This document shows positions 1,503-28,862 of a stretch of 34,565 bases of DNA, piece by piece. A program made the position numbers and the translations under genes. Position 1 is the first letter of the stretch. Each line of letters starts with the position of its first letter. The notes beneath the pieces are model-generated. The model was not told the DNA's origin. It did not search any database and worked only from the letters and a program-made list of their open reading frames with translations. Where the stretch lies: positions 1 through 34,565 of IMG/VR virus record IMGVR_UViG_2896595138_000002; one strand, 5' to 3'. Origin of the DNA: a virus. Lineage: Duplodnaviria > Heunggongvirae > Uroviricota > Caudoviricetes.

Positions 1503-3246
1503 CCGTCATCGTTCTCACGGATACTCACACAGCGGAACAGGCGCTGGCGCAACGTCGGCAACTTCAGCCCCCATACGCTGTATCCGGCAACGCCGTCAGG
1601 AACACGGCTCACTTTTACCTTCACGCCGTCGGTGACGGACTGAACCTCCACGCTGACCGGATTGCCACTTCCGTCAACCAGGCTTATCAGCCTGGTGCCG
1701 GAGGATGGCAGCGTGATTTCACGGTCGAGCGTCAGCGTCCGGGTCTGGCTGTTTACCGCCAGCACGCGCCCGCCGATGCTGATACCGGCATAGTCATCAT
1801 CGCAGATTTCAATGACATCACCCGGTACATGGCGAAGCCCTTCTGCGCCCACGCTGAAGTCCACGGTCTGCGTTTCCAGCAGTTCCGTTTTAATCAGCCA
1901 CAGCCCGGCGCGGTGTGCCTGCCCCCGGCTGGTACAGCCAAAGGCATCCATCTTCGTGACATTACGACCGTAACGGGCAATGGCCTGCGTATCTTCAACA
2001 AGCTCTGTCGCCGTCTCCCAGCCGTTGTTCGGGTCAATCCAGTTCACCTCAACGGCATTATGGCGGTCCTTCAGGGCGCTGAAGCTGTAGCGGAACGGCG
2101 CGCCATCATCCGGCATCACCACATTACTGCGGTTATAGGTCCACACCTTATCTGATGGTCGGTCCTGCACGAACGTCAGCGTCTGCCCGTTCCATACCGG
2201 CATACAGCGCATCGCCGAGCAGAAATCACTGAGCACATCCCACGCCTTACGCTGCGTGGTCAGCCAGGCATTACAGGTGATGCGCGGCTCCGTGCCGCCA
2301 AAACCGTCCGGCACCGACTGGTCGCAGTACTGGCCGATGACATACAGCGCCCATTTATCCACATCTGCCGCACCAAGACGTTTCCCCATGCCGTAGCGTG
2401 GATGGGTCAGCATATCCCACAGACACCAGGCCATGTTATTGCTGTATGCTGGCTTAAACGTTCCGTCCCAGATACCGCTGTATTGCCGCGTCTGCGGGTT
2501 ATAGTTCGACGGCACCTGCAGAATACGCCCGCGCAGATGATAATTACGGCTCACCTGCTGGCTGCCGAACTGCTCCGAATCCACCTGTACGCCGACCAGT
2601 GCCGTGTTCGGGTAGCACTGTTTCACATCGATGATTTCGGTGTATGACGACCAGAGCGTTTTGTTCTGCAGCTGGTCTGTGGTGCTGTCCGGCGTCATCC
2701 TGCGCATCCGGATATTGAACGGGCGCGGCGGCAGGTTACCCACCACCACCGATGCCAGATACTGTGAGGTGGTTTTGCCTTTAATGGTGATGTCTTTTTC
2801 CGTCACCCAGCCACCGTTACGCTGTATCTGAACCAGCAGGCGGACTTCCGACGGACTCCTGTCCCCCTTTGAGGTGGTTTCCACCAGTGCCTGCACACCG
2901 AAGGTCAGGCGCAGACGGTCGATATTTGCAGACGTGATGGTCCGGGTGATCGGCGTGTCATATTTCACTTCCGTACCCAGCACCGTCTCGGAGCCGGAGG
3001 ATTCAAATCCCTCCAGCGGAGTCTGCTCCTGCTCACCTGCCCGGAACACCACCGTGACGCCGGAGATATTGGTATTCCCCTCACTGTCCAGCACCGGCGT
3101 ACTGTTCAGCAGCACACTTTTTAATCCGTCCACCGGACCTTCAACCGGCCCTTCACTGATGACGTCTATCACGCTCAGCATCTGGGATGATTTCAGGTTG
3201 TCCTTCGCTTCGCGCGGGTATGCCCATTACTGCTACCTTTACCCAT
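1503..3246 (-). pseudogene. J: Lambda J-like tail tip / host-specificity protein, N-terminal ~580 codons only, with a frameshift near codon 10
   Basis: 571-aa ORF matches lambda gpJ N-terminus (LSVIDxISEGPxEGPVDGLKSVLLNSTPVLD...RCVSIRENDDG). The MGKGSSNGH start at 3246 is out of frame (GGG at 3216..3218 appears one base short). Homology ends at about 1503. Confidence 0.85.
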
Positions 3247-3306
3247 TCCTCACGCTCCATAAACGACAAAACCGCCCGGAGGCGGTTTCACATAAAACAT
3301 TTTGCA

Positions 3307-3954
3307 TCAACGACCAATCACCACAACCTGACCACCATCCCCTTCATCTGCCGTGCTGATCTCCTGAGAAACCACGCGTGACCCCACGCGCATTTCACCG
3401 TACAGAACAGGCAGAACATTGCCCTGGGCAACCATGTTATCCAGTGAGGAGAAATAGGTGTTCTGTTTGCCGTTATCTGTACTTGCTGCCGTGGGCGTCC
3501 TGGCTTTCGGTGCCAGCATCTGCGCCACTCCGCCCAGGATCATACTGGCCCCTGCCGCATACATGCCCGATACAGCCGCGGCACCCAGCCAGCCCACAGG
3601 GTTCCACCATGCCACCGCAATCAGCGCCGCCCCCAGCACCACCTGAAGCACACCGCCGCTTTTAGCTCCCGCCAGACGCGGCACGATGTGGATCACGGCA
3701 CCATTTGCCAGCGGCTCATTAAGACGGGCAGACAATTCGGTTTCACCTGCATCACGCCCGGCAATCCGTACCTGATACCAGCCGTCACTCAGTTTCTGAC
3801 GAAATGCCGGGACCTGTGTGGACAGCGCCCGGATGGCTTCAGCCCCCGTTTTTACACGAAGGTCGATGCGGCGGCCAAATCGTTGTAAATCCCCGTAAAG
3901 GCAGATGCGTGCCATGCCCGGTGACGCCAGAGGGAGTGTGTGCGTCGCTGCCAT
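3307..3954 (-). CDS. I: Lambda I-like tail assembly protein
   Basis: 215-aa ORF MAATHTLPLASPGMARICLYGDLQRFGRRIDLRV...GGQVVVIGR, gpI-like. Confidence 0.85.
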   Translation of the reverse strand: MAATHTLPLASPGMARICLYGDLQRFGRRIDLRVKTGAEAIRALSTQVPAFRQKLSDGWYQVRIAGRDAGETELSARLNEPLANGAVIHIVPRLAGAKSGGVLQVVLGAALIAVAWWNPVGWLGAAAVSGMYAAGASMILGGVAQMLAPKARTPTAASTDNGKQNTYFSSLDNMVAQGNVLPVLYGEMRVGSRVVSQEISTADEGDGGQVVVIGR

Positions 3955-4594
3955 TTGTCGGTATACCTCTCTCGTTTGCTCAGTTGTTCAGGAATATGGT
4001 GCAGCAGCTCGCCATCACCACAGTAAATGGCGGCATGATTCGGCACCGATGAACCAAAGCAGCACAGCAGCACGTCGCCAGGCTGCGCCTCTGTCAGTGC
4101 GACACGGTAAAAACCAGTCGCCTCCATATTGTCAAGATAGAGATTCTGACCGTTACGCCACCAGTCATCCCCGCGATGAAAATCCGGCATCTCAATCCCC
4201 GCCAGATGATAAGCATCCCGGAACAGCGTGTAACAGTCCGTCACCCCGTGCTCAAAGCGCCGCCCGGTGAGATGCGGCACACAGCGGAACTTGTGAATCG
4301 CCCCCCGGCAGACCAGCCACCACGGCAAATCACTCTGCACCTGCAGCCGCCGGTCAGCCTCACTCAGCCAGGGCAGACCACAGGGATGACTGTGGACCAG
4401 TGCCACAATCTCACCCTGCATCTCTGCCTGCAGCCAGTCTTCCGGCGACATCCGGAAATAATCCTCCGGCTCACCGGAAATATTCACGCAGGGAAAATAT
4501 CTTTCCCCTCCGGCGTGCTTACCACGAAGCCGCACGACTCCGCTGGCGCACATCGCCGGGCGTGCGCCAGAATCGCTGATTCTGTCTGTGTCAT
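3852..4594 (-). pseudogene. K: Lambda K-like tail assembly protein (JAB/MPN + NlpC/P60), frameshifted near codon 29
   Basis: MTQTESAILAHARRCAPAESCGFVVSTPEG from ATG at 4594 continues as GERYFPCVNISGEPE...HSHP... in another frame (ORF 3852..4637). The shift sits at a homopolymer, plus-strand C-run 4505..4508. Confidence 0.75.
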
Positions 4595-4599
4595 GGGAT

Positions 4600-6747
4600 T
4601 TACTGCGAAAGTTTGTTAATGGAAAGGAAGCCGCCAAAGTTGCCGACGTTATTGCGGAACTTACAACCGCTCAGGCATTTGCTGCATTTATCCTTCGTGA
4701 TATCGGACGTTGGCTGGTCATATTCATCCGCGACCGCCGGACCATGATAACCGCACTCATCGCCGCGATAGGTCCAGGTGCAGGTGTTGGCCAGCATGAT
4801 ACGTCCCGGAAAAACAGCGCCGTCCGTTTCCGTCGGCGTGGACAGTACAAAAGAGGCACTCACCGCGCTCAGTTCGCTGCACTGCTCAATGCGCCAGCGG
4901 CTGATCACCTCCTGCTCCGGATCGGCGTCACTGTTTCCGTTGACGAAGTTCACCGCATCCAGAAAACGGGCGTAAACCTTACGCCGGACCACCGTTCCGC
5001 CGACCAGACTCTGCAGATCTTCCGCCATCCCGGTGACCATACCGTACAGGTTAGAAACCGTCAGCGTGGGGCGCGTACTGGTGCCCTTGTCGCCAAGTGC
5101 AGCCAGCTGGTGTTTGTACTCCAGCGTCTCATCTTTATGCGCCAGCAGGGATTTCTCCTGTGCAGACAGCTGGCGACGTTGCGCCGCCTCCTCCAGTACC
5201 GCGAACTGACTCTCCGCCTTCCACAAATCCCGGCGCTGCTGGCTGATTTTCTCATTTGCTCCGGCATGCTTCTCCAGCGTCCGGAGTTCAGCCTGAAGCG
5301 TCAGCAGGGCAGCATGAGCACTGTCTTCCTGACGATCGCCCGCAGACACCTTCACGTCGAACTGTTTCGGCTTTTTCAGCGTCGCTTCATAATCCTTTTT
5401 CGCCGCCGCCATCAGCGTGTTGTAATCTGCCTGCAGAATTTTCCCGTCCTTCAGTGCCTTGTTCAGTTCTTCCTGACGGGCGGTATATTTCTCCAGCGGC
5501 GTCTGCAGGCGTTCATAAGCCTTCTGCGCCTCTTCGGTATATTTCAGCCGTGATGCCTCAGACTCGGCCCAGTCCTTTGCTGCCATCTCTCTGGCCTTTT
5601 CAAGATCGGCCTGCAACGTGCCGGCTGAAAGCCCAAGTTGCGCATTCGCTCTGTCCTCCCATGCTCCCCGGAGATTGGCAAGAAATGCGGATGTTTTACC
5701 GCGCCGGTGGCTCCGGCTCTGATACCACTGCCATTTTTTGTCCGCCTCATCAAAAGCCTTTTCTGCTTTCTCCAGCATTTCCCGGGCAGTGTCCGGGCGA
5801 CCAATATCCAGCACCGAATCCCACATGGATTTGAATGCCCGCGCTGTCCTGTCTGCCCAGGTCTCCAGCGTGCCCATGTTCTCTTTCAGGCGGCGGGTCA
5901 GGTCATCAAACCCTTTCGTTGCGGCCTCGTTCGCCGCCTGCAATGCCCCGGCTTCATCTCCGGAACGCTGCAACTGAGCAACATACGCAATCTGCTCCGC
6001 CGTCACGTTATGGAACTGACGTGCCATCGCTGTCAGTCCCGACGTCGGGTCTGTGGTCAGCTTCCCGAAGGCTTCAGCGACCTTGTCCACCTCCACGCCG
6101 GATGCAGAGGAGAAACGCGCCACACTCTGGCTGATCGCCTCAAACTGCTCACCACCACGCACACCTGCATTCACCAGCGCCGTCAGTGACTCGCTGGTCT
6201 GGTTAAACGTCAGCCCTGCCGCCTGCCCGGCTCTGGACAGGACCAGCATACGATCTGCCGTCAGTCCTGCCTGATTACCGGAAAGGACCAGCGTTTTATT
6301 GAAACTGGACAGGGTTGAGTCCCCCTGATACCAGGCATACGCCAGCGCACCGATCGCCACCGCCAGCGAGGTGGCCCCGACCATCGGCAGGGTGATCGCA
6401 CCGGCAAGCCCCCTGAACATGGGGATCATCCCGCCGAAGGAGTCCTTAACCTGACCACCCTGTTGCAGCAGGATCAGCCACGGACTTTGCCCGCCTGCAA
6501 GCTGCGTGGCCACGTCGGTGAACTGCGCAGGCAGCATACGCATGGCGGCTTTATACTGCCCGACGGAAATCCCCGCTTTCTGTGCAGCCAGCGCCTGTCG
6601 GCTCAGCGACTGTTCAACGACTGCCGCTGTTTTTTTCGCATCACTTTCCGTACCGGAAAAATGACGCCTGACTCTGGCCATCTGCTCGTCAAATCTGGCC
6701 GCATCCAGACTCAAATCAACGACCAGATCGCCTACCGGTTCAGCCAT
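4600..6747 (-). pseudogene. In-frame fusion of lambda H-like tape measure (N-terminal ~560 aa) to the C-terminal ~160 aa of lambda L-like tail protein
   Basis: 715-aa ORF: MAEPVGDLVVDLSLDAARFDEQMARVRRHF... (gpH) switches at ...LAALGDK|GTSTRPTLTVSNLYGMVTGMAED... to gpL C-terminus ending FGGFLSINKLSQ. H C-terminus, all of M and L N-terminus are absent. Confidence 0.8.
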
Positions 6748-7180
6748 ACCGGACTCCTCCTGCGATCCCTTCTGATACTGTCATCAGCATTACGTCATCC
6801 TCCGTCATATCCGCCACATCCGGGGAAGCGCGGATAACTTCATTCCCGTCCGGGCCAAAGCGGACGCCTCCGGCAAGCCCTGCCGCTTTCTGCATCAGCA
6901 CATCATCTTCAGGCTCTTCGTCAGCCTCGCGCCGGTTAAGCAGACTGAAATCCAGCGGATGCATATCCGGATCGCTGAAAAACAGGCTGAGGACGGTGTA
7001 TGTCAGCCCGGAAAAGTGCATATCCAGCAGAACATCATGAAAATAATGGGTACTGTAAAAGCGGTGCCAGTCGGCATACTCCGTGGATGACATCCCGGCA
7101 AGCATGGCACGCCAGTCGGGTCGCCCCATCTCACGCGCCAGTTTCAGGGCAAAACTCAGCTCACCGTCGAACACTTTCCC
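6740..7180 (-). CDS. T: T frame of the G-T tail assembly chaperone (reached by programmed -1 frameshift from G)
   Basis: ORF 6740..7174 (FDGELSFALKLAREMG...) overlaps the G 3' end and the H start. Confidence 0.75.
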   Translation of the reverse strand, partial: GKVFDGELSFALKLAREMGRPDWRAMLAGMSSTEYADWHRFYSTHYFHDVLLDMHFSGLTYTVLSLFFSDPDMHPLDFSLLNRREADEEPEDDVLMQKAAGLAGGVRFGPDGNEVIRASPDVADMTEDDVMLMTVSEGIAGGVRYG

Positions 7181-7578
7181 GCAGAAACAGGCTCTGCAGG
7201 CCCGGCGTCCTCTGTCTGTTCAGGAGCATCATTCACCACAAACTCAGACATTCCGGACAGACGTAACACCACGTTTTCAGCCTGAGCAATTGCCTCCGTG
7301 GGCCAGGTGGTAAGCACTTCCTGCTCAATCTGCGTAATGGCTTCATTCATGGACGGCAGCTTTGTCTTCTGTGGATGGTTATGCCACAGAGACATCGCCA
7401 CCAGAAACGCCCCGCCTCTGATAAGCTCCTCTACAGACACCTGCAGGTTGCCACTGGATTCAGCCTTTTTTTCCTGCTCTTTCAACCAGGCAAGATGCTC
7501 AATACGCTGCAGGGCTAACAGTTCAGAAAGCGTGACGGTCACACCGTTATGTTCAAATGATTCGGTTTTCAGGAACAT
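7156..7578 (-). CDS. G: Lambda G-like tail assembly chaperone
   Basis: 140-aa ORF MFLKTESFEHNGVTVTLSEL...GKCSTVS, gpG-like. Confidence 0.9.
   Translation of the reverse strand: MFLKTESFEHNGVTVTLSELLALQRIEHLAWLKEQEKKAESSGNLQVSVEELIRGGAFLVAMSLWHNHPQKTKLPSMNEAITQIEQEVLTTWPTEAIAQAENVVLRLSGMSEFVVNDAPEQTEDAGPAEPVSAGKCSTVS
7174..7180 (-). promoter_or_regulatory. Slippery heptamer GGGAAAG for the G-T programmed -1 ribosomal frameshift
   Basis: Minus-strand GCGGGAAAGTG at the G/T overlap. Confidence 0.7.
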
Positions 7579-7593
7579 CGCTGACTCTCCGGA

Positions 7594-8325
7594 TTAACGG
7601 GCGGTGACGTTGATTTCTGCAACCGCAGCAAGCTCACCATTACCGGATACGACCGGAATGTTGACCTTGCCTGCAGCAACACCTTTCACGGTGATGGTCA
7701 TACCACTGACCGACACGGTGGCTTTTGTTTTATCCGCAGACACCGCACGGAAGCTCTTGTCGGTTGCGCCTTCCGGCTGGAATGCCACGGTCAGCGTAGT
7801 GCTCTGTCCTTTCACCACCGAGGTGCTGGCAGGCGTCACGGTCATGCCGGTTGCCGCTGTTACCGTGCTGCGATCTTCTGCCATCGACGGACGTCCCACG
7901 TTGGTGACTTTCACCGTGCGGGTGATCACTTCCTTCGCCGTCACCGCCTTACCGATACTGCTGACCCAGCCGCGGAACACATCGACCGTGCCGTTCGGGA
8001 AGCGGATTTTATAGGCACGGGTATCACCTTCATTAAACCACGCCAGCAGCGCCTGCTCTCCGGGCATCCACGCCAGCGTGAAGCTGGTATCTCCGGCAGA
8101 TTTCTGCCCCTGTCCGGTCGCGGCCCAGTCCGCATCTTCATCATCGAGATAACTGTCGTCATAGGACTCAGCGGTCAGTTCGCCGGGCGTCAGGTCTTTA
8201 ACCTTTGCCAGACGCGACCAGTCATTGTCTGAAAGCGGGTTTGCATAAGGGTCGCCGCTCCCGTTATAAACCCACAGGGTGGTCCCGGCCCCTTTCACCG
8301 GTGCCAGAGGATTTGGTGTTGGCAT
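7594..8325 (-). CDS. V: Lambda V-like major tail protein
   Basis: [33 protein letters not shown]... with a C-terminal Ig-like region; start taken at the internal Met of ORF 7594..8355. Confidence 0.9.
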
Positions 8326-8332
8326 ATCGTCC

Positions 8333-8728
8333 TCACATTTCATAGGTAATGACATAAGTCAGATCGGCTGAACTCCACAGGCCCGCATCATCGTCGCGCC
8401 GGTAGTCATAGCCGCTGGCCACCATACTGGTGATCAAATCTGACAGTGCCGGGATATCACTCATCACCGGATAAATCCGGGACTCCATCCACGCATCCAG
8501 CTCTGAATCCGACACCTGAGCAGGCAGGAAAACTTCGATATGCAGCTCCGCCTGCCAGGTATCGCTGTCCAGCTCTTCGCCCGTGTATTCAGCGCCGGTG
8601 AGATAAACGGCAACTGCCGGAAAATCCGCCTCATCAAAAACAGCGGGGCGACCATCAAAAAACGTCGCCCCGGTGTCATGCTTCTCCAGTGCATCCAGTA
8701 CGGCTGCACGGAGTTCAGTATGTTTCAT
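8333..8728 (-). CDS. U: Lambda U-like tail terminator protein
   Basis: 131-aa [36 protein letters not shown]... Confidence 0.9.
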
Positions 8729-8754
8729 CGCTTTATTACCATCCTCAGTTGATG

Positions 8755-9302
8755 CTACAGCGCATAGTCCAGCGCTTTCGGAAGACGTTCACGCCGTATC
8801 CGCTCAATATTCTGTTTAAACGCCGTGGTCAGCGGCACCGCCATCGGGATTTTCACCACATCAATGGGGTAACGGTTTTTCCCGGCCACACGCTGCATGA
8901 CATGCCACCGGCCATTTTTCAGTTGCTGAATAAACGCGCCGGGAATACGACGGTTTCCCACCACAAGCACGCTGCCGCCACCTTTCAGGGCTGAACGCTG
9001 CCCCTTTTTACGACGCCTGCGTCGGGACAGGACAATCCGCGCGTTAACCAGCCTGATTACGGGCAAATCCCCCGGTTAACTTTGATTCTGGCCTGCGGAT
9101 TTTTTACCGTGGCCCTTTTCAGCCTGGCCCTTTCCTTTACCAGTTTCCGGCGTACCTTTGTCTCACGGGCAACCTGTGACGCCGACTGCGATATCGCGGA
9201 TGAAGCAACGCGGTTAATGGCCATTGCGGCGGCACCAGGCACCGCCGTTTTGCTGATACGGCTGAGGTTTTCAACGGCCTGCTCAAGACCTTTTATGGCC
9301 AT
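8755..9302 (-). pseudogene. Z: Lambda Z-like tail completion protein, split by a frameshift
   Basis: ORF 9057..9302 (MAIKGLEQAVENLSRISK...KVNRGICP*) and ORF 8755..9066 (PVIRLVNARIVLSRRRRRKKGQRS...) are the two halves of gpZ. The shift is in the G-run at plus-strand C5 9069..9073. Confidence 0.8.
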
Positions 9303-9313
9303 ACATCCCCCTT

Positions 9314-9667
9314 TCAGCGGCGACGGTTAACGGCAGGCGGTACGCCCCGCCCAAGCCAGAGATGACAGCTTCCACCATCATCCGGCGAAACCCGGTCTAT
9401 CCAGAAGTTTTCCTCACCGATGGTCAGCGTGTCTCCACGCCGCAGTTGCCGCACATCATCAGTCCGGACAAACAGGGACGGGCTGGAGCCTTCAACGCGC
9501 ACGCCCTGTCCGGCATAGCTGATATTTTCAGGGTCATCAAAAACACCACGTATTACTGCGCCGGACTGCTCACCGGATGTCATGGTAGCTGACGTTCCCA
9601 TGTACCCGCGTATCGTTTCATCGGCGCGGGCAATGGCAGCATCGAACAGGTTATCGAAATCAGCCAC
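9314..9667 (-). CDS. FII: Lambda FII-like head-tail connector protein
   Basis: 117-aa ORF MADFDNLFDAAIARADETIRGYMGTSAT... Confidence 0.9.
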   Translation of the reverse strand: MADFDNLFDAAIARADETIRGYMGTSATMTSGEQSGAVIRGVFDDPENISYAGQGVRVEGSSPSLFVRTDDVRQLRRGDTLTIGEENFWIDRVSPDDGGSCHLWLGRGVPPAVNRRR

Positions 9668-9678
9668 AGCGCCTCCCG

Positions 9679-10074
9679 TTATTGCATTCTGGCCAGGCCA
9701 CGTTCTGTCATTTCGGCTGCCACACCGGCAGAGACACGAAACGCCGTTCCCGGCAGCACAAATGCCACAGGTTCATCCCGCGTGGCGTGAAGTGCATCGG
9801 TATGCAGCGTCACCAGTGCCACGACCGTGACCAGAGCAGCCGTATCAGTCACGGTATCCGTCTGTTCTGATACCACCTCATTTTTATGTCCGGTCAGCGC
9901 ATTTTCCGGGCTGACAGACGTGTCCTGACCGGCTGCGTCATCCGTGTCATCAAGCTCCTCTTCCAGCTCTGCCACACGGAGCGCCAGTTCTTCTTTCGTC
10001 CCCGTCAGGCTGACATCACGGTTCAGTTGCTCACCCAGCACCTGAAGACGGGCAATCAGTTCATCTTTCGTCAT
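9679..10074 (-). CDS. FI: Lambda FI-like DNA packaging protein
   Basis: MTKDELIARLQVLGEQLNRDVSLTGTKEELALRVAELEEELDD...; start at the internal Met of ORF 9679..10113. Confidence 0.85.
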   Translation of the reverse strand: MTKDELIARLQVLGEQLNRDVSLTGTKEELALRVAELEEELDDTDDAAGQDTSVSPENALTGHKNEVVSEQTDTVTDTAALVTVVALVTLHTDALHATRDEPVAFVLPGTAFRVSAGVAAEMTERGLARMQ

Positions 10075-10115
10075 GGACTCCTCCACAGAGAGAAAATGGC
10101 CCCGAAGGGCCATGA

Positions 10116-11141
10116 TTACGCCAGTTGAACGGCCACGAACTCATCAGGATCAGCCAGCAGCATCAGCGGTGCTGACTGAATCATGGTGAACTCTCGCGCC
10201 GGATCGCCGGATGTCTTCCAGTTTTTCGGATAACGGGGAGACGCATTAATACCCTCACTCAATGCATCCGCATCCTGAATACAGCCATAGGAGCGCAGAC
10301 CGCGTGCATGAGTGTTACCCAGCACCATCGTGTTGTCCGGCAGGAAGTTCTTTTTGACGCCGTTTTCCACGTACTGTCCGGAATACACGACGATGGCCAC
10401 ATCGCCATACATTCCCTTATAAGACACCGCTTTGCCCAGGTCTTTTACCGCTGTCTCCAGTTCGGAATGAGAGCCGCGACGGGTATCCAGCTTCTCCCTG
10501 ACGGCTTTGAAGGAACGGAACAGCGCCCAGCCTTTCGGGTCAAACACGATGATATTCACCACGCCGCTGGCGTTCAGCGCGTAGGCTTCGATATCGTCGG
10601 TCGGGTCATACGTGGACTTGTCACGCTTGCTCCACTCCGTGCCGCCGGACTGCGTGATGTTGTTCGCCGCACTGCGGCCCATATCCACCTCAACCGGATC
10701 GAAGGCTTCACCGGTCATGGTGTATTTGCCCTTGAGCACGGCAGAAACGGCCTGCATCTCTTCGACCTGAGCAATGGCCAGCTCTTCGTCTCGCATGTTC
10801 TGCAGGATGATGCGACGGCGGCGGTAAGCCGGGTCCGCCAGATTCTGCGGATCTTCATCCGGCAGGCGACGCAGGGTCATCTGCGGATTCACCTCATGCT
10901 TGGGCTTGACATATCCCGGTGTAAATTCAGAGGTGGATCCGCCACGGGAACGGATAACCTCACCGGAAACAATCGGCGAAACGTACAGCGCCATGTTTAC
11001 CAGTCCCGGAATTTGTGAGAGATAGACTTTCTCCGTGGTGAAGGGATAGCTCTCACGGAAAAAGAGACGCAGAAACAGCGGATCAAACTTAAATTTCTGC
11101 TCATTTGCCGCCAGCAGCTGGGCGGTTGTGTACATCGACAT
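10116..11141 (-). CDS. E: Lambda E-like major capsid protein
   Basis: MSMYTTAQLLAANEQKFKFDPLFLRLFFRESYPFTTEKVYLSQIPGLVNMALYVSPIVSGEVIRSRGGSTSEF..., 341 aa from the internal Met. Confidence 0.95.
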   Translation of the reverse strand: MSMYTTAQLLAANEQKFKFDPLFLRLFFRESYPFTTEKVYLSQIPGLVNMALYVSPIVSGEVIRSRGGSTSEFTPGYVKPKHEVNPQMTLRRLPDEDPQNLADPAYRRRRIILQNMRDEELAIAQVEEMQAVSAVLKGKYTMTGEAFDPVEVDMGRSAANNITQSGGTEWSKRDKSTYDPTDDIEAYALNASGVVNIIVFDPKGWALFRSFKAVREKLDTRRGSHSELETAVKDLGKAVSYKGMYGDVAIVVYSGQYVENGVKKNFLPDNTMVLGNTHARGLRSYGCIQDADALSEGINASPRYPKNWKTSGDPAREFTMIQSAPLMLLADPDEFVAVQLA

Positions 11142-11196
11142 AAAAAAATCCCGTAAAAAAAGCCGCACAGGCGGCCTTTAGTGATGAAGGGTAAGG

Positions 11197-11529
11197 TTAA
11201 AGGATGCTGATTGCCGTTCCGGCAAACGCGGTCCGTTTTTTCGTCTCATCGCTGGCAGCCTCCGGCCAGAGCACATCCTCATAACGGAACGTGCCGGACT
11301 TGTAGAACGTCAGCGTGGTGCTGGTCTGGTCAGCAGCAACCGCAAGAATACCAACGGCAGCACCGTCGGTGGTGCCATCCCACGCAACCAGCTTACGGGT
11401 GGAGGTGTCCGGCATCAGCGGGGTCATTGCAGGCGCTTTCGCACTCAATCCGCCGGGCGCGGTTGCGGTATGAGCCGGGTCACTGTTGCCCAGCGGCTGG
11501 TAATGGGTAAAGGTTTCTTTGCTCGTCAT
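11197..11529 (-). CDS. D: Lambda D-like head decoration protein
   Basis: [39 protein letters not shown]..., 110 aa. Confidence 0.9.
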
Positions 11530-11552
11530 AAACATCCCTTACACTGGTGTGT

Positions 11553-12856
11553 TCAGCAAATCGTTAACGGCATCAGATGCCGGGTTACCTGCAGCCAGCG
11601 GTGCCGGTGCCCCTGCATCAGACGATCCAGCGCAGTGTCACTGCGCGCCTGTGCACTCTGTGGTGCAGCTGCCAGAATGCGGCGGGCCGTTTCCACGGTC
11701 ATACCAGGGGTTTCGGCCAGCACGCGTGCCTGTTCTTCGCGTCCGTGAGCCTCCTCACAGTTGAGGATCCCCATAATGCGACTGTTTTCTGCCGCAACCG
11801 CTGCGGTGATCTGCGCGTTCACGTCCGGCTGCGCAGCGCTGGCGTTCTCGCCCTCCGTCGCTTGCACCACGCCAGTAACGTCAGCCTGCGAAGCAGTGGC
11901 TGAAACAGTTGTTGATTGAGTCTCTTTGGTCATTCGCCCTCCTGAGAGACGGGATTTACGTGCATCCAGTGCATCACGCATGACGGTGATCGCATCGGTA
12001 CTGTTAACAAGTTCATCAGCCAGTCCGGCATCAATGGCCTCCTGACCGCTGTACACTGCAGCCTCGGTATCCAGCACAGCCTGCACGGACAGGCCGGTAT
12101 ATGCCGACACCTTCTGTGCAAACATCCGGCGGGTTGCATCCATCCGGGACTGCAGTGTTTCCCGGACATCATCCGGTAGATGGCTGTAGGGGTTGCCATC
12201 CACCTTATGGCTGCCGCTGTAAATCAGCGTGATTTCCACGCCCTGTTTCTCCAGCGCAGCACCGTAATTACTGTGAGCCATCATGACGCCGATGGAGCCT
12301 GTCCGGGCGGTCTGCGTGACCAGACGCCGGGAGGCGGCACTGGCAAGCAGCTGACCTGCGCTGCAGTTCATGTCATTGGCCAGCGCCCATACCGGCTTTA
12401 TGTCACGCACACGGGCGATGATGTCAGCGCAGTCAAATGCCCCTGCCACCATTCCGCCGGGCGTGTCCATATCCAGCAGAATGCCGTCCACCATCGGGTC
12501 GCTGGCAGCCTGTTGCAGACGGGCGATAATGCCGTTGTAACCGGTCATCCCGAATACGGCTGCAGCGCCCGCGTCCGGCTGACCAGCGTGCCGGAAACCG
12601 GCAGCACGGCGATGCCGTTCATGACCTGATAACTGCGGGCCTGTCGTGGTCCGTCATCATTAACGGATAACGCCAGCGGCGCGGGTGCCTCTCCGGCAGT
12701 CAGGCTGTCACCGGACACCGCATCCGTCAGGCGGCTGATCCCAAGCTGGCCTGCAAGCGCACAAAAGAAAACCCGCGCATAGGCGGGTTCAAGCATCAGC
12801 GGCTCATTAAAAGCCATGCTGGCAATATGCGGGAGATTACGCAGCTCTGCTGTCAC
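11553..12856 (-). pseudogene. C: Lambda C-like prohead protease / scaffold (S49 peptidase family), with two apparent frameshifts
   Basis: VTAELRNLPHIASMAF...RALQPYSG* (ORF 12545..12991) then MTGYNGIIARLQQAASDPMVDGILLDMDTPGG... (ORF 11553..12548) in another frame; C-terminus reads QGHRHRWLQV... instead of the expected QGAPAPLAAGNPASD. Shifts near 12552 and at C-run 11610..11613. Confidence 0.75.
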
Positions 12857-14121
12857 TCTTCTCCTCCTCTGTTGATTGTCGCAGTCCGGATTCAAATGCC
12901 GCAGCCGCCCAGGCGGGCGGTTTAAGACCGGCTGCACGGCGCTCCATCGTTTCACGGACCTGCTGGGCAAAAATTTCCTGATAGTCGTCACCGCGTTTTG
13001 CGCACTCTTTCTCGTAGGTACTCAGTCCGGCTTCTATCAGCATCACCGCTTCCTGTACTTCTTTCAGACCATCGATGGCCATACGACCGGAGCCTATCCA
13101 GTCACAGTTCCCCCAGGCGCTGCGGGCTTCCTGAAAGCTGAAACGCGCTTTTGAAGGTAACGTCACCACGCGGCGAACGATGGCCTCTTCCAGCCAGCAC
13201 AGAAACATCTGGCTCGCCTGACGGGATGCGACGAATTTTCGCCGCCCCATAAAGTACGCCCACGACTCGTTCGCACTGGCCCGTGCCGTGGAGTAGCTCA
13301 TCTGGGCGTAATTCCGGGAAAGCTGCTCATACGAGACACCCAGCCCGGCAGCGATATACCGCAACAGTGACTGCTCAAACACGGAGTAGCCGTTATCCGT
13401 GTCCTGAGCCGTCTGCAGGTTCAGTGAGTCCCCCGGCATCAGGTGCGGCACTTTTGCGCCTCCCAGACGGACCGGTGCTGCGGCGTAATACGCGGCAATT
13501 TCACCAATCCAGCCGGTCAGCTTGTCCCGCTGCTCCTTACTGTTCGCGCCCAGAATAAAATCCATCGCTGACTGCGTATCCAGCTCACTCTCAATGGTGG
13601 CGACATACATCGCCTTCACAATGGCGCTCTGCAGCTGCGTGTTCTGCAGTGTGTCGAGCATCTTCATCTGCTCCATCACGCTGTAAAACACATTTGCACC
13701 GCGGGTCTGCCCGTCCTCCACGGGTTCAAAAACGTGAATGAACGAGGCGCGCCCGCCGGGTAACTCACGGGGTATCCATGTCCATTTCTGCGGCATCCAG
13801 CCAGGATAGCCGTCCTCGCTGACGTAATATCCCAACGCCGCACCGCTGTCATTAATCTGCACACCGGCACGGCAGTTCCGGCTGTCGCCGGTATTGTTCG
13901 GGTTGCTGATGCGCTTCGGGCTGACCATCCGGAACTGTGTCCGGAACAGTCGCGAGGGACTGGTATCCCAGGTGGCCTGAACGAACAGTTCACCGTTAAA
14001 GGCGTGCATGGCCACACCTTCCCGAATCATCATGGTAAACGTGCGTTTCCGCTCAACGTCAATGCAGCAGCAGTCATCCTCGGCAAACTCTTTCCATGCC
14101 GCTTCAACCTCGCGGGAAAAA
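12837..14121 (-). pseudogene. B: Lambda B-like portal protein, 5'-truncated (about 105 N-terminal codons missing) by IS insertion
   Basis: ORF 12837..14165: gpB homology runs from ...FSREVEAAWKEFAEDDCCCIDVERKRTFTMMIREGVAMHAFNGELF... to ...EEEKSDSRAA; the first ~14 codons of the ORF are IS600-derived. Confidence 0.85.
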
Positions 14122-14941
14122 TTTCGCACGTATAAACATCTTTGATGCCAGCGAGGTACAACCATCCCTCCTGTGTGGCAACATACGTCAGGTCCGCCAC
14201 CCAGACCTGATTTGGTGCTGTAGGAGCGAACGTCTGGTTCAGCAGATTTGGCGCAACTGGCAGATTGTGGTTCGGGTTCGTAGTCGCTCTGAACTTGCGT
14301 TTCTGCTTACAGCGTAGCCTTAGCTCCTTACGAAGACGTGCCAGTCGGTCACGACCAACGATGATGCCATTCTCTGCCAGCTCCGTCTGGAGCCGCCGGG
14401 TTCCATATGTTTCGCGAGTGCGGATATGTGCCACCTTAATCTCCAGTTTTAGCCGCTCATCACTTTGTTTTCTGTCTGAGGGTTCATGCTGTACCCAGTT
14501 GTAATAACCGCTCCTGGATACACCAAATACCTGACACATCGCTTCAATGGGAAATTGTTGTCGCCATTGTTCGATTAACGCGTATTTTTCAGCGACTCCT
14601 GTGCAAAATACGCTGTTGCTTTTTTTAATATATCTCGCTCAAGGCGAGCTTCATTTAACGCCTTACGCAGTTGCAGAATTTCAGATTCCAGTTCAGCCAC
14701 CGTGCGGGAACCAGGAGTACCGAGCCCTTTTCTGGCGGCGGTAACCCATTGTCCTAAAGTGCCTTCAGGAAGGGATAATCGGGAAGCGCCTTCACTGATC
14801 GAAAGTTGATTTTCAAGAACCGTTCTGACAGCTTCGGCTTTGAACTCTTTAGAGTAACGTTGGGTTTTTCTGCTCATTATTAGCTCCTTCTGATGCCATT
14901 CTATTTCAGGAAGGAGTGTCCGTTAAACTCAGGCTACCTCA
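14122..14941 (-). mobile_element. IS600 (IS3 family), partial copy 1: left end + orfA + about 140 codons of orfB
   Basis: Left-end sequence TGAGGTAGCCTGAGTTTAACGGACACTCC (RC at 14919..14941); orfA at 14575..14877; identity to the other copies stops at 14122 where portal sequence begins. Confidence 0.85.
14575..14877 (-). CDS. IS600 OrfA (helix-turn-helix transposase subunit)
   Basis: 100-aa ORF MSRKTQRYSKEFKAEAVRTVLENQLSISEGASRLSLPEG...KKATAYFAQESLKNTR; A7 run at plus 14620..14626. Confidence 0.9.
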   Translation of the reverse strand: MSRKTQRYSKEFKAEAVRTVLENQLSISEGASRLSLPEGTLGQWVTAARKGLGTPGSRTVAELESEILQLRKALNEARLERDILKKATAYFAQESLKNTR

Positions 14942-15872
14942 GACTTTTGCTGGCCCGAAGACCAAATCCGAAGCGCCCGTTCTTTTCATCACGAAAGTTT
15001 TGCTCTATCTGCATTCGCCGACTGTATAACTTGATGATTTCTCGCGCTCTGAAGTCATTTGTACTGCTGAAGATCAACCAGGCTTCTTTTGCTGATTTGC
15101 TCTGTTCTTTGTCTGTTTTGTTTAAACCACTCTGACCTTTCGAACGTTTCTTTTTTCGCCCTTTTGCCGATTTCTTATAGGTGTAAAAATGCCCCCGGAT
15201 GCTTTTTTTCCTTTCTTTAACCAGCCTTCCAGCCCCCATATATTCCGGTGTTTTACATTCAGGGCTATCCGACACTTTTAACCATCTTTCAGGCGCGTTA
15301 TCGAGGCAATACTGAACGTTATTTCTGATCCGACCAATAAAATCCCAGCCCAGAGAAGTAATATGGTGAAACCATGCGCTCTGAAATCCAGCATCCGTGA
15401 CAATAATAACCCTGGCATCGGGGGGCAGGGATTGAGCAAGGGAATCAAGGAAATCATGTTGTATCAATGGATTATTTTGTTTTTCAGAAGGAACAACCTT
15501 ACTCAATAACGGAATGGAACGCCCGTCACACAGAAGGCTGGCACGAAGAACATGATGCTCCTGGGAGGGATAGCCACTCCAGTCTACGGCTATTACACAT
15601 AAAGATAACTGCCGTGTCAGCATTGAAGTGATATTCCTGAAAATCATTGGAATATCGCGATGGAGCGCCTCATTACCCATGAGGCGATCAATACGTTTGA
15701 TCTTATTCTTAACTTGTGCATTACCCGGCAAAAAACGTCCGATACTGGTCAGCGTCAGAGATGCTCCGTTGATTAACGCCACTGTGGCATCCATCAGGGC
15801 ATTTTGTCGGTACTGATGAAATGGTGCTAAGGCATCCCGGAAGAAATTCTGACATACTTTATGAACAGGCAT
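14942..15872 (-). pseudogene. IS10-like DDE transposase, C-terminal ~80 aa missing
   Basis: Homology ends at the IS600 junction, about 14941. Confidence 0.7.
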
Positions 15873-15954
15873 AGCAGTGATCTCATTGAATTGTTGGCAC
15901 AAATCAGTAGATCACATAATGCTATGTCTGTCTCGTTTTCTGGGGATTCCTCAG
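14942..15954 (-). mobile_element. IS4-family (IS10-like) element fragment, 3'-truncated by IS600 copy 1
   Basis: Transposase ORF 14934..15902 with IS10-like motifs (IKRIDRL, VDWS, LRAS, DAGF, KGRKKKRS, IYSKRMQIEQNFRD); terminus CTGAGGAATCCCC (RC) at about 15942..15954. Confidence 0.7.
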
Positions 15955-15982
15955 CCCAGAAGGGTGGGAATGGTGGACGTTT

Positions 15983-18084
<2,102 letters not shown>

Positions 18085-18110
<26 letters not shown>

Positions 18111-18630
18111 TCAGCAACCCCGGTATCAGTTCATCCAGCGCGGCTGCTTTGTTCATGGCTTTGATGATATCCCGTTTCAGGAAATCAACATGTCGGTTTT
18201 CCAGTTCCGGAAAACGCCGCTGCACCGACAGGGGGATCCCGTCGAGAATACTGGCAATTTCACCTGCGATCCGCGACAGCACGAAAGTACAGAATGCGGT
18301 TTCCACCACTTCAGCGGAGTCTCTGGCATTTTTCAGCTCCTGTGCGTCGGCCTGCGCACGCGTAAGTCGATGGCGTTCGTACTCAATAGTCCCTGGCTGG
18401 AGATCTGTCTCGCTGGCCCGCCGCAGTTCTTCAACCTCCCGGCGCAGCTTTTCGTTCTCAATTTCAGCATCCCTTTCGGCATACCATTTTATAACGGCGG
18501 CAGAGTCATAAAGCACCTCATTACCCTTGCCACCGCCTCGCAGAACGGGCATTCCCTGTTCCTGCCAGTTCTGAATGGTACGGATACTCGCACCGAAAAT
18601 GTCAGCCAGCTGCTTTTTATTGACTTCCAT
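18085..18630 (-). CDS. nu1: Lambda Nu1-like terminase small subunit
   Basis: 181-aa ORF MEVNKKQLADIFGASIRTIQNWQEQGMPVLRGGGKGNEVLYDSAAV... Confidence 0.9.
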
Positions 18631-18807
18631 TGTTCATTCCACGGACAAAAACAGAGAAAGGAAACGACAGAGGCCAAAAAGCTCGCTTTCAGCACCTGTC
18701 GTTTCCTTTCTTTTCAGAGGGTATTTTAAATAAAAACATTAAGTTATGACGAAGAAGAACGGAAACGCCTTAAACCGGAAAATTTTCATAAATAGCGAAA
18801 ACCCGCG

Positions 18808-18819
18808 AGGTCGCCGCCC
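18808..18819 (-). other. cos: cosN cohesive-end site, lambda type (GGGCGGCGACCT on minus strand), with cosB toward Nu1 and a cosQ-like region to the right
   Basis: Plus strand ...aaatagcgaaaacccgcgaggtcgccgcccgtaacctgtcggatcgccgg... is the reverse complement of the lambda left end joined to the lambda right end (recalled from memory). Confidence 0.85.
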
Positions 18820-19017
18820 GTAACCTGTCGGATCGCCGGAAAGGACCCGCAAAATGATAATAATTATCATCTACATGTCACAACGTGCATCTACGCCATC
18901 AAACCACGTCAAATAATCAATTATGACGCAGGTATCGTATTAATTGATCTGCATCAACTTAACGTAAAAAAAACTTCAGACAATACAAATCAGCAACACA
19001 GAATACGGGACAACCTC

Positions 19018-19212
19018 ATGTCAACGAAGAACAGAACCCGCAGAACAACAACCCGCAACATCCGCTTTCCTAACCAAATGATTGAACAAATTAACATCGC
19101 TCTTGATCAAAAAGGGTCCGGGAATTTCTCAGCCTGGGTCATTGAAGCCTGCCGTCGGAGACTAACGTCAGAAAAGAGAGCATATACATCAATCCAGAGT
19201 GATGATGGATGA
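19018..19212 (+). CDS. Small basic protein, hypothetical (resembles an ORF at the lambda right end)
   Basis: 64-aa ORF MSTKNRTRRTTTRNIRFPNQMIEQINIALDQKGSGNFSAW..., located just beyond cos. Confidence 0.5.
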   Translation: MSTKNRTRRTTTRNIRFPNQMIEQINIALDQKGSGNFSAWVIEACRRRLTSEKRAYTSIQSDDG

Positions 19213-19462
19213 ACATCCCGGTTTCTTTACCTTCCCTCCCTCCCCGCACAGAACTGGCGAGCGTGAGGGACCAATATGTGAGCCATAAATGCCTTATCTT
19301 CAGAAATGCAGTTGGTATCCGAATAGAACGATATTGTAAATTCACCTAAATACGAGGCATTGCTGTAGTTGAATTGCAGTACTGTATTAGCCTGACAGTG
19401 ACAGAATACGATATTGACTCTGTCACTTGTGAAATGGTCAGAATGGTTAGCAGTTATGGTGA

Positions 19463-19669
19463 TCAGTCAACCAACAGGGAATAATCCTTCGTATTCTTAT
19501 CGTGCTTTACTAACGCGGCCTCAATTGCCCTGAATGCTTCCAGAGATACTTGATGTTCTATACATGCAATTACAACATCCGGGTAACCCATCGAAATGGT
19601 GCTATTAAGCATAGTTTTTACACGAACCTGCTCCTGGGAGGGGGCATCAATGTATTGATCTTTATGCAT
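19463..19669 (-). CDS. Hypothetical protein
   Basis: 68-aa ORF with protein-like composition; no family recognised. Confidence 0.35.
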
Positions 19670-19964
19670 TTTGTCGCTCCATTCGTTTGCTCTTCACTTG
19701 CGGCTAAAAATATAACGTCAAATAACTCAGCATGAAAGAGTGAAAGTTTCAGCGCGTTTCCCTTACATAATCTGTCGTTTGTATTCTCTTCAGGCATACC
19801 GGAAAGACTAGGTATTGTCACACAACCAATACCATCGACAATCGAGATTTATATCTATTCGGTAATGTTTAAATATAACAAAACCCCGTAAAAACGAGGT
19901 TTATGGGTAATTTGTATTGTTGAATAGCATCTGATGAGAAATTGATGCTAATACTATAAACATA

Positions 19965-21083: not shown

Positions 21084-22348
21084 TGAGGTAGCCTGAGTTT
21101 AACGGACACTCCTTCCTGAAATAGAATGGCATCAGAAGGAGCTAATAATGAGCAGAAAAACCCAACGTTACTCTAAAGAGTTCAAAGCCGAAGCTGTCAG
21201 AACGGTTCTTGAAAATCAACTTTCGATCAGTGAAGGCGCTTCCCGATTATCCCTTCCTGAAGGCACTTTAGGACAATGGGTTACCGCCGCCAGAAAAGGG
21301 CTCGGTACTCCTGGTTCCCGCACGGTGGCTGAACTGGAATCTGAAATTCTGCAACTGCGTAAGGCGTTAAATGAAGCTCGCTTTGAGCGAGATATATTAA
21401 AAAAAAGCAACAGCGTATTTTGCACAGGAGTCGCTGAAAAATACGCGTTAATCGAACAATGGCGACAACAATTTCCCATTGAAGCGATGTGTCAGGTATT
21501 TGGTGTATCCAGGAGCGGTTATTACAACCGGGTACAGCATGAACCCTCAGACAGAAAACAAAGTGATGAGCGGCTAAAACTGGAGATTAAGGTGGCACAT
21601 ATCCGCACTCGCGAAACATATGGAACCCGGCGGCTCCAGACGGAGCTGGCAGAGAATGGCATCATCGTTGGTCGTGACCGACTGGCACGTCTTCGTAAGG
21701 AGCTAAGGCTACGCTGTAAGCAGAAACGCAAGTTCAGAGCGACTACGAACCCGAACCACAATCTGCCAGTTGCGCCAAATCTGCTGAACCAGACGTTCGC
21801 TCCTACAGCACCAAATCAGGTCTGGGTGGCGGACCTGACGTATGTTGCCACACAGGAGGGATGGTTGTACCTCGCTGGCATCAAAGATGTTTATACGTGC
21901 GAAATTGTCGGCTACGCCATGGGAGCGCGCATGACAAAAGAGCTGACAGGTAAAGCCCTGTTTATGGCGCTCAGGAGCCAGCGCCCACCTGCCGGGCTAA
22001 TCCACCACCCTGATCGAGGTTCACAGTACTGCGCATACGATTACCGGGTCATACAGGAGCAGTTTGGTCTGAAAACATCAATGTCGCGTAAAGGTAACTG
22101 TTACGACAACGCTCCGATGGAAAGCTTCTGGGGAACGCTGAAAAATGAGAGCCTGAGCCACTATCGTTTTAATAACCGGGATGAAGCCATCTCAGTAATA
22201 CGGGAATACATTGAGATTTTCTACAATCGTCAGCGTCGTCACTCTCGTCTGGGGAATATCTCCCCGGCAGCCTTCAGGGAAAAATATCATCAGATGGCTG
22301 CTTAAAAAAAGAACAAATGGTAGTGTCCGCTATTGCCAGTACACCTCA
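21084..22348 (+). mobile_element. IS600 copy 2, complete, flanked by 3-bp direct repeat GAG
   Basis: Ends TGAGGTAGCCTGAG... and ...GCCAGTACACCTCA; GAG at 21081..21083 and 22349..22351; 1265 bp. Confidence 0.9.
21148..22305 (+). CDS. IS600 transposase as a single fused OrfAB reading frame (385 aa)
   Basis: A8 run at 21399..21406 (A7 in copies 1 and 3) joins orfA to orfB in one frame: ...DILKKSNSVFCTGVAEKYALIEQWRQQFPIEAMCQVFGVSR...; DDE domain present. Confidence 0.85.
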   Translation: MSRKTQRYSKEFKAEAVRTVLENQLSISEGASRLSLPEGTLGQWVTAARKGLGTPGSRTVAELESEILQLRKALNEARFERDILKKSNSVFCTGVAEKYALIEQWRQQFPIEAMCQVFGVSRSGYYNRVQHEPSDRKQSDERLKLEIKVAHIRTRETYGTRRLQTELAENGIIVGRDRLARLRKELRLRCKQKRKFRATTNPNHNLPVAPNLLNQTFAPTAPNQVWVADLTYVATQEGWLYLAGIKDVYTCEIVGYAMGARMTKELTGKALFMALRSQRPPAGLIHHPDRGSQYCAYDYRVIQEQFGLKTSMSRKGNCYDNAPMESFWGTLKNESLSHYRFNNRDEAISVIREYIEIFYNRQRRHSRLGNISPAAFREKYHQMAA

Positions 22349-25097: not shown

Positions 25098-25433
25098 ATG
25101 AAGTGGATTGTGATTGATACAGTTATCCAGCCATCATGCGGAATATCTTTTTCAGTCATATGGAGTAAAATAAAATTAATAATCTGGTATCAATCGGATG
25201 CTTTCTTACCTCCTGAAAGTATATTTACACTGACTCACACAGGCATCATGCTCAATAACAAAGTGCTACCTGTAACCATTTACAACGTAGTACCATTCAA
25301 TAAAACATTCTGGAATTTAATCAAAAACAGCCAGGAATGCCCTACAAATACAGATAACGTATTGAATGAATGCTTTAATAACCGTTGCACTCTGCAAATA
25401 TGTCCTTATGGACTAAAACAACAAAGTCCATAA
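25098..25433 (+). CDS. Hypothetical Cys-rich 111-aa protein in an AT-rich island
   Basis: AGGA SD 6 nt before ATG; six Cys including [26 protein letters not shown]; no recognisable family. Confidence 0.35.
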
Positions 25434-25489: not shown

Positions 25490-26087
25490 AGAGTGGCGCT
25501 ATGTGCCATTGCATGGTGCCGGGTGCCTCCCGGTGAATTCAGTACCAGCACCTGAATCCGCGATTATCCCATATACCTACTCGCTGATTTCCCCTCCGCA
25601 CAGGGGGATTCACCATGCCAGTTTCTTTTAACAAACTCCCGCAAACCAGACAACAGTCAACCGCCTGAATTGTGAAGTATTTAAAAATTTCTCCCGCTAA
25701 CTGATACCCGGCTAACAGTCTGGCGTTTTCTTTTTCAGCAACGGGAAAGCAACAACCACCACACCCGCCACCAGCACACCGTCAGCCAGCACTGACATTA
25801 TCCGGCTGCTGCAATGCCATTCACAAAAACAGTAAGCAATCACTTTTTACCGTAACAGGTGATAATCCAGATATGTATCCTGAGGTGTACTGGCAATAGC
25901 GGACACTACCATTTGTTCTTTTTTTAAGCAGCCATCTGATGATATTTTTCCCTGAAGGCTGCCGGGGAGATATTCCCCAGACGAGAGTGACGACGCTGAC
26001 GATTGTAGAAAATCTCAATGTATTCCCGTATTACTGAGATGGCTTCATCCCGGTTATTAAAACGATAGTGGCTCAGGCTCTCATTTT

Positions 26088-26741
26088 TCAGCGTTCCCAG
26101 AAGCTTTCCATCGGAGCGTTGTCGTAACAGTTACCTTTACGCGACATTGATGTTTTCAGACCAAACTGCTCCTGTATGACCCGGTAATCGTATGCGCAGT
26201 ACTGTGAACCTCGATCAGAGTGGTGGATTAGCCCGGCAGGTGGGCGCTGGCTCCTGAGCGCCATAAACAGGGCTTTACCTGTCAGCTCTTTTGTCATGCG
26301 CTCTCCCATGGCGTAGCCGACAATTTCGCACGTATAAACATCTTTGATGCCAGCGAGGTACAACCATCCCTCCTGTGTGGCAACATACGTCAGGTCCGCC
26401 ACCCAGACCTGATTTGGTGCTGTAGGAGCGAACGTCTGGTTCAGCAGATTTGGCGCAACTGGCAGATTGTGGTTCGGGTTCGTAGTCGCTCTGAACTTGC
26501 GTTTCTGCTTACAGCGTAGCCTTAGCTCCTTACGAAGACGTGCCAGTCGGTCACGACCAACGATGATGCCATTCTCTGCCAGCTCCGTCTGGAGCCGCCG
26601 GGTTCCATATGTTTCGCGAGTGCGGATATGTGCCACCTTAATCTCCAGTTTTAGCCGCTCATCACTTTGTTTTCTGTCTGAGGGTTCATGCTGTACCCAG
26701 TTGTAATAACCGCTCCTGGATACACCAAATACCTGACACAT
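26088..26741 (-). CDS. IS600 OrfB (DDE integrase domain), 3' end frameshifted
   Basis: ORF ends ...ESFWER*, other copies read ...ESFWGTLKNESLSHYRF...; C-run 26089..26091 is 3 long. Confidence 0.8.
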   Translation of the reverse strand: MCQVFGVSRSGYYNWVQHEPSDRKQSDERLKLEIKVAHIRTRETYGTRRLQTELAENGIIVGRDRLARLRKELRLRCKQKRKFRATTNPNHNLPVAPNLLNQTFAPTAPNQVWVADLTYVATQEGWLYLAGIKDVYTCEIVGYAMGERMTKELTGKALFMALRSQRPPAGLIHHSDRGSQYCAYDYRVIQEQFGLKTSMSRKGNCYDNAPMESFWER

Positions 26742-26776
26742 CGCTTCAATGGGAAATTGTTGTCGCCATTGTTCGA

Positions 26777-27079
26777 TTAACGCGTATTTTTCAGCGACTC
26801 CTGTGCAAAATACGCTGTTGCTTTTTTTAATATATCTCGCTCAAGGCGAGCTTCATTTAACGCCTTACGCAGTTGCAGAATTTCAGATTCCAGTTCAGCC
26901 ACCGTGCGGGAACCAGGAGTACCGAGCCCTTTTCTGGCGGCGGTAACCCATTGTCCTAAAGTGCCTTCAGGAAGGGATAATCGGGAAGCGCCTTCACTGA
27001 TCGAAAGTTGATTTTCAGGAACCGTTCTGACAGCTTCGGCTTTGAACTCTTTAGAGTAACGTTGGGTTTTTCTGCTCAT
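26777..27079 (-). CDS. IS600 OrfA
   Basis: 100-aa ORF identical in pattern to copy 1 except L20P (RTVPENQ). Confidence 0.9.
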   Translation of the reverse strand: MSRKTQRYSKEFKAEAVRTVPENQLSISEGASRLSLPEGTLGQWVTAARKGLGTPGSRTVAELESEILQLRKALNEARLERDILKKATAYFAQESLKNTR

Positions 27080-27258
27080 TATTAGCTCCTTCTGATGCCA
27101 TTCTATTTCAGGAAGGAGTGTCCGTTAAACTCAGGCTACCTCAACAGGATGGACTTAGCAATGGCTGCTCCTGGCACAAAGCGGACAGTGATCACCGTTC
27201 TTACGACTACTTTCTGACTTCCTTCGTGACTTGCCCTAAGCATGTTGTAGTGCGATAC

Positions 27259-27282
27259 TTGTAATGACATTTGTAATTACAA
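27259..27282 (+). promoter_or_regulatory. relBE operator-like inverted repeats (TTGTAAT-N-ATTACAA) in the relB promoter region
   Basis: cTTGTAATgacatTTGTAATTACAAg 13 bp upstream of the relB start. Confidence 0.65.
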
Positions 27283-27294
27283 GAGGTGTAAGAC

Positions 27295-28861: not shown

Positions 28862-28862
28862 C

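Follow-up and report, generated by a model that had tools for sequence, protein, structure and literature searches.

Nested ISSfl1 and IS600 remnants within the portal gene of a lambda-like prophage

In the prophage described here, the portal gene B is broken after its first 32 nt by a remnant of ISSfl1, which is itself cut by a truncated IS600 that runs directly into the rest of B. The DNA analysed, called the window below, is a stretch of 34,565 nucleotides covering the whole of IMG/VR record IMGVR_UViG_2896595138_000002. Very probably (we put the probability at roughly 0.85) the arrangement arose when ISSfl1 inserted into B, IS600 then inserted into ISSfl1, and an illegitimate deletion of about 1.03 kb followed. 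The outcome, on this best explanation, is a portal gene that has lost codons 11-106 and is cut off from its own start codon.

The prophage and its portal gene

From about position 1503 to 19785 the minus strand of the window is collinear with phage lambda at 95-98% identity, matching lambda nt 17249 back to 1 and then 48502 back to 47629. The block starts with J, continues with the tail and head genes as far as Nu1 and cos, and extends into the lambda right end, and tblastn searches with the lambda proteins found Nu1, W, D, E, FI, FII, U, V, G, T, K and I at full length. The leftmost 1.5 kb of the window matches the ydfJ/ydfI/ydfK/ynfT region in more than 1,900 E. coli genomes. J adjoins DNA that matches E. 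coli ynfT/ydfK/ydfI/ydfJ, and the prophage is therefore best explained as a lambda-like remnant at the ydfJ/Qin locus. The host genome is IS-rich and probably of the Shigella type, to judge by its Shigella-like load of IS elements. The prophage resembles Qin of E. coli K-12 in its ydfJ, ydfK and ynfT neighbourhood and in being a defective lambdoid prophage with cold-shock and gns-type genes. Qin of K-12 has lost most of the lambda head and tail genes; the window prophage, in contrast, keeps most of them and is riddled with IS600.

Collinearity with lambda is interrupted exactly at window 14120 and 15955. Read 5' to 3' on the minus strand, the order is W, the start of B, ISSfl1, IS600 and the rest of B, and the features are as follows.

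15983-16189, minus strand: gene W (head-tail joining), intact, 68 of 68 residues identical to lambda gpW
15955-15986, minus strand: start of B, first 32 nt (10 codons plus 2 nt), adjoining W, aligned with lambda 2836-2867 and with E. coli EH2252
14942-15954, minus strand: ISSfl1 remnant comprising nt 1-1013 of 1301, with 100% identity to intact copies
14120/14121-14941, minus strand: truncated IS600, nt 1-822 of 1264, 99.8% identical over 822 nt to IS600 copies
14575-14877, minus strand: IS600 orfA, intact, 100 aa, from the ORF list, with an IS3-family N-terminal match to NF033516
14030-14539, minus strand: IS600 orfB fragment, 140 of 140 residues identical to a full-length copy, then 29 residues from out-of-frame portal DNA
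14120-14121, no strand: joint J1, where IS600 (about nt 822) meets portal codon 107 (B nt 319), from three-way comparison
12837-14120, minus strand: B remnant, codons 107-533 plus stop (lambda nt 3154-4437), from tblastn, profile match and comparison of the joint

A first-pass annotation, made from the letters alone, had placed the nest of insertions between W and B. The two genes overlap (the W stop and the B start share ATGA at 15983-15986), and the nest instead sits inside B, after codon 10, i.e., after nt 32. That annotation's figure of about 105 removed portal codons was also too high, as the absent portal DNA is lambda 2868-3153, a segment of 286 bp holding B codons 11-106, or about 95 codons. 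The first base of codon 107, lambda nt 3154, is window 14120. By tblastn, the B remnant is 98.6% identical to lambda gpB over residues 105-533. It scored 405.7 bits with TIGR01539 (portal_lambda) over profile positions 75-457 of 457 only, and it matched PF05136 over profile positions 73-354 of 354 only; a full-length match to either portal family is not found, the N-terminal part being absent. The frame of the remnant is open for 427 codons. An ATG inside IS600 (14163-14165) starts a 442-aa frame that is in frame with the portal remnant (window 12837-14165, minus strand), and an exact-protein look-up gave no record of this ORF as a called gene.

The ISSfl1 remnant

The limits of ISSfl1 were defined from two intact copies, one in yqeC of E. 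coli FDAARGOS_943 and the other on a plasmid of S. boydii ATCC 49812; the first, used as the reference, is 99.9% identical to the second. Intact copies carry the RefSeq annotation 'IS4-like element ISSfl1 family transposase', and ISSfl1 is present at four places on one S. boydii plasmid. The intact element is 1301 bp long, belongs to the IS4 family, and has the termini CTGAGGAATCCCCAG... and ...GGGGATCCCTCAG. Around the yqeC copy the 9-bp target duplication is CCCCTGAGG, and around the plasmid copy it is CCCCGTACT.

The copy in the window has the same left terminus, CTGAGGAATCCCCAG, at 15954, and is identical at 1013 of 1013 nt to the copy in E. coli FDAARGOS_943, but it lacks the last 288 bp of the intact element (nt 1014-1301), right inverted repeat included. 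Its transposase is identical at 310 of 310 residues and is then cut, the full length being 397. It scored 283.3 bits with NF033591 (cut-off 152), and Pfam DDE_Tnp_1 (E = 3.9e-18) identifies the product as an IS4-type DDE transposase. The pair of inverted repeats and the 9-bp duplication of a complete element are not found here, the right terminus and the second target copy being deleted; this copy of ISSfl1 is therefore a remnant. In the first-pass annotation it was an 'IS10-like' remnant at 14942-15954. Those limits are exact at the level of the base, and the description is a fair one in that ISSfl1, an IS4-family element, is related to IS10 and, as IS10 does, makes 9-bp target duplications. 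The element is nevertheless ISSfl1, and IS10 proper was rejected as its identity, the transposase having only 35-37% amino acid identity to those of IS10A/ISVsa5 over more than 90% of its length.

The truncated IS600 and the other IS600 copies

Intact IS600 is an IS3-family element of 1264 bp. The truncated copy has the left inverted repeat TGAGGTAGCC... (also given as TGAGGTAGCCTGAG...) at 14941 and an intact orfA, but lacks the right 442 bp (nt 823-1264) and with them the right inverted repeat. Nucleotide identity and the orfA/orfB organisation both assign it to IS600; with the right end absent, neither TG...CA at both ends nor a 3-bp duplication is seen. The orfB fragment is cut past the region of the first catalytic Asp and covers Pfam rve profile positions 2-45 of 102 only. 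Earlier limits of 14122-14941 for the partial IS600 were exact at the 14941 end and 1-2 nt off at the start, the joint with the portal lying at 14120/14121. The two nested copies have each lost the right end and some of the transposase, and should therefore be immobile. The truncated IS600 remains open to recombination with other copies, and the window has four IS600 copies within 34 kb, three of them full-length.

21084-22348, plus strand: full-length IS600, copy a, with a 3-bp GAG duplication
25881-27143, minus strand: full-length IS600, copy b, oriented like the truncated copy
31986-33250, plus strand: third full-length IS600 (copy c), flanks without a match

The GAG duplication indicates that copy a is a simple insertion, while the lack of matching flanks indicates that copies b and c took part in rearrangements.

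Two further observations concern the surroundings of these copies. The genes for DUF968, RusA and antiterminator Q (28583-31118, plus strand) are opposite in orientation to the lysis and morphogenesis genes that they should precede, and this Q segment is bracketed by inverted IS600 copies. A simple inversion between copies b and c was considered for the Q segment and rejected, as the 3-bp flanks do not pair in the way that such an inversion predicts.

The three joints at base level

The joints were set by a three-way comparison of the window with intact portal genes (lambda, E. coli EH2252) and with intact IS copies. Alignment to the lambda W-B region and to reference elements had been proposed in the first-pass annotation as the way to place the breakpoints, and it did define every one of them at the level of the base. 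In the sequences below, a slash marks the site of the joint. At J3, 15954/15955, the terminal repeat of ISSfl1 (...CCTCAG) reaches 15954, next to portal nt 32 at 15955; intact portals read ...GGCCCCAGAAGG at this site, and the window reads ...CCTCAG/CCCAGAAGG. At J2, 14941/14942, the left terminus of IS600 (...ACCTCA) occupies the positions up to 14941, and 14942 is ISSfl1 nt 1013, the site in intact ISSfl1 being ...GTTGAAC/GACTTTTGC. The 3' end of the transposase gene is thus cut by the partial IS600, as had been noticed earlier, and J2 puts the cut at residue 310 of 397. The left ends of ISSfl1 and IS600 are, accordingly, clean termini that abut broken target sequence.

J1 is of another sort. 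A single A at 14120 is common to both partners, while 14121 belongs to IS600 only and 14119 to the portal only. At this site the portal reads ...CGCGGGAAAA/GGCACG, IS600 reads ...GCCGACA/ATTTCGC, and the window reads ...CGCGGGAAAAATTTCGC. J1 is internal to both partners, and no element terminus lies there. The earlier observation that IS600 is itself truncated where portal sequence begins was therefore correct, and the truncation is at IS600 nt 822.

Order of events

Two clean termini on broken targets, together with one joint that is internal on both sides, argue for two insertions and a deletion, and the joints thereby support the two sequential insertions plus deletion that had been proposed from the sequence at first sight. 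In the first step, ISSfl1 would have inserted into B after nt 32, with B nt 24-32 (CCTTCTGGG) as its target. IS600 would then have inserted between ISSfl1 nt 1013 and 1014, cutting the transposase after residue 310. In the third step, a single illegitimate deletion with 1 nt of microhomology would have removed IS600 nt 823-1264, the last 288 bp of ISSfl1, the second target copy and B nt 33-318. Neither ISSfl1 nt 1014-1301, nor the remainder of the nested IS600 (nt 823-1264), nor lambda 2868-3153 is found elsewhere within the window, so the missing DNA was not moved nearby; the segment may instead have been relocated outside the window rather than deleted.

The joints were searched for in several collections. 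None of the three was found in 5,426 complete E. coli genomes. J2 was absent from 72,556 plasmids, among them 140 Shigella records that matched in part, J3 and J1 were absent from species-representative genomes, and J3 and J2 were absent from metagenome contigs and from IMG/VR, where J1 matched once, in the contig described below. An exact-protein look-up found the 169-aa and 312-aa ORFs that run across J1 and J2 in a single NCBI assembly, the same for both (GCA_002950375.1, contig CP026845.1). Being absent from those 5,426 E. coli genomes, the joints are markers specific to a lineage, and they could be used for strain typing or for dating events on a phylogeny. They also call for caution in automated annotation, as the chimeric ORFs that span them are not genes.

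No intermediate, i.e., neither an intact ISSfl1 in B nor an intact IS600 in ISSfl1, was found in any collection searched, and for that reason the order of events rests on parsimony. The ISSfl1::IS600 nest might have formed elsewhere and reached B as a composite, either moved by a transposase acting in trans or brought in through homologous recombination of one ISSfl1 copy with another, with the deletion coming later. Several ISSfl1 copies occur in Shigella replicons, so that both transposase in trans and partners for recombination would have been available, and the failure to find an in-place intermediate is in keeping with such a route. However, J2 was not found in E. coli genomes, plasmids, or viral and metagenome collections, no donor copy is known, and the route needs more steps than insertion in place. 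We regard formation of the nest outside B as unlikely, and successive insertion of the two elements within B as the better account.

The related contig and the origin of J1

J1 recurs base for base, at position 4473, in the IMG/VR contig IMGVR_UViG_2850808358_000003. In that contig, the sequence ahead of the truncated IS600 is not ISSfl1; it matches the DNA that flanks copy b in the window (27144-30793, 99.87% identity). This contig is exactly what one would expect from homologous recombination between the truncated IS600 and the directly repeated copy b. In the history proposed above, this would be a later step that took place in a relative, where recombination of the truncated IS600 with a copy 12.2 kb away would have deleted the segment between them. 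Relative to the window, the contig lacks 14942-27143, or 12,202 bp, and the absent segment holds the ISSfl1 remnant, the start of B, W, A, Nu1, cos, and the cold-shock and gns genes, as well as another IS600, the lysis genes and iraM. At IS600 nt 126 the contig has the allele of copy b, which fits a recombinant, this being a single SNP only. The contig may derive from a second locus of the same strain. Wherever it originates, J1 is present in two different sequence contexts, and it is consequently not an artefact of assembly.

This last point matters because a false truncated IS600 at the portal might have come from IS600 repeats that were collapsed or wrongly joined, or from a consensus that is chimeric. 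Assembly collapse had been named at the outset as something that would overturn the interpretation, and the four IS600 copies in the window offer the opportunity for it. In addition, the frames of A, C (twice) and Z are interrupted by four single-base deletions in C/G homopolymers, a pattern that errors in a long-read consensus typically leave. Repeat collapse, however, joins two unique flanks by way of a complete repeat, whereas J1 joins IS600 nt 822 to unrelated portal DNA. Moreover, the identical J1 is found in a second contig that has different surroundings and SNPs of its own, and the source contig of the window is a closed sequence of 4.93 Mb. The collapse was thus not borne out, and we consider an artefactual origin of the truncated IS600 very improbable.

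IS elements, including IS10 and members of the IS3 family, promote adjacent deletions, and the truncation of IS600 might accordingly be due to transposase acting at an internal pseudo-end, or to an IS-promoted adjacent deletion, rather than to transposase-independent illegitimate recombination. There is only a slight chance of this, since adjacent deletions begin exactly at a terminus and leave the IS whole, while both endpoints here are internal; and pseudo-end transposition was rejected on the breakpoint sequence, as IS600 at the break (...GCGAAATT/GTCGGC) lacks the CA end of the IS3 family and is unlike the inverted repeat.

Comparison with IS-driven decay in Shigella

In Shigella and enteroinvasive E. 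coli (EIEC), expansion of IS1, IS2, IS4, IS600 and IS911 has been accompanied by IS-driven pseudogenes and IS-mediated deletions (Hawkey et al. 2020, PMC7373316). The window is similar in that IS600 is present in high copy (four in 34 kb), genes are inactivated, and a deletion between copies (12.2 kb) is seen in the related contig. The decay of this prophage is the same in kind, although this particular nest was found in no other record searched. It is ordinary, step-wise, IS-driven prophage decay, a textbook instance of what is already known and nothing new in kind. It is of interest as a clean illustration, resolved to the base, of one insertion, a second within the first, an illegitimate deletion and then recombination between IS copies, and its importance beyond annotation is small.

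Other lesions and minor observations

The first-pass annotation concluded from the damaged portal that packaging is not possible. This is a reasonable and sound inference, and loss of packaging would indeed be over-determined, given the deletion that made an H::L fusion and the truncation of J besides the portal lesion. A truncated portal might be expressed and be dominant-negative, blocking head assembly of superinfecting lambdoid phages, in which case it would be an accidental, IS-created exclusion factor against such phages. We give this suggestion almost no credence. The open portal frame carries no weight as a sign of selection, because a recent event would equally leave it open.

The H::L fusion is in frame, with its joint at about 5085-5089 in an ORF at 4600-6747 (minus strand), and links residues 1-550 of the tape-measure protein H to residues 68-232 of the minor tail protein L. 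The fusion lacks lambda 12186-13638, a loss that takes in the whole of M, and its joint shows microhomology of about 4-5 nt. The exact H::L joint had no match in IMG/VR; a follow-up H::L pattern matched 95 unrelated lambda-like contigs. Of the tail fibre gene J, only residues 1-582 are left, and the window 1-1503 side has neither the 3' part of J nor the genes beyond it. The attachment site is presumably lost on the J side too.

Relative to lambda, frameshifts are found at 16871 (in A), at 12552 and 11614 (in C) and at 9074 (in Z), each of them a single-base deletion in a C/G homopolymer. Deletions of this sort look more like errors of a long-read consensus than like true pseudogenes; the 'split' terminase gene A (421 + 230 aa), C and Z may in reality be intact, and on the unpolished sequence these frameshifts should not be scored as decay. 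A further frameshift-type difference, at 18683, is non-coding and near cos, and it stands apart from the C/G-homopolymer set.

An iraM-like anti-adapter gene (25098-25433, plus strand) lies between the lysis genes and IS600 and scored 162 bits with NF007393 (cut-off 121). An independent case of IS600 in lambda-type packaging genes was seen in E. coli EH2252 (NZ_AP027176.1, 2527196-2536425), where the terminase gene A is split by IS600. The two halves of A are in opposite orientations there, beside two IS600 copies, which suggests an IS600-mediated inversion.
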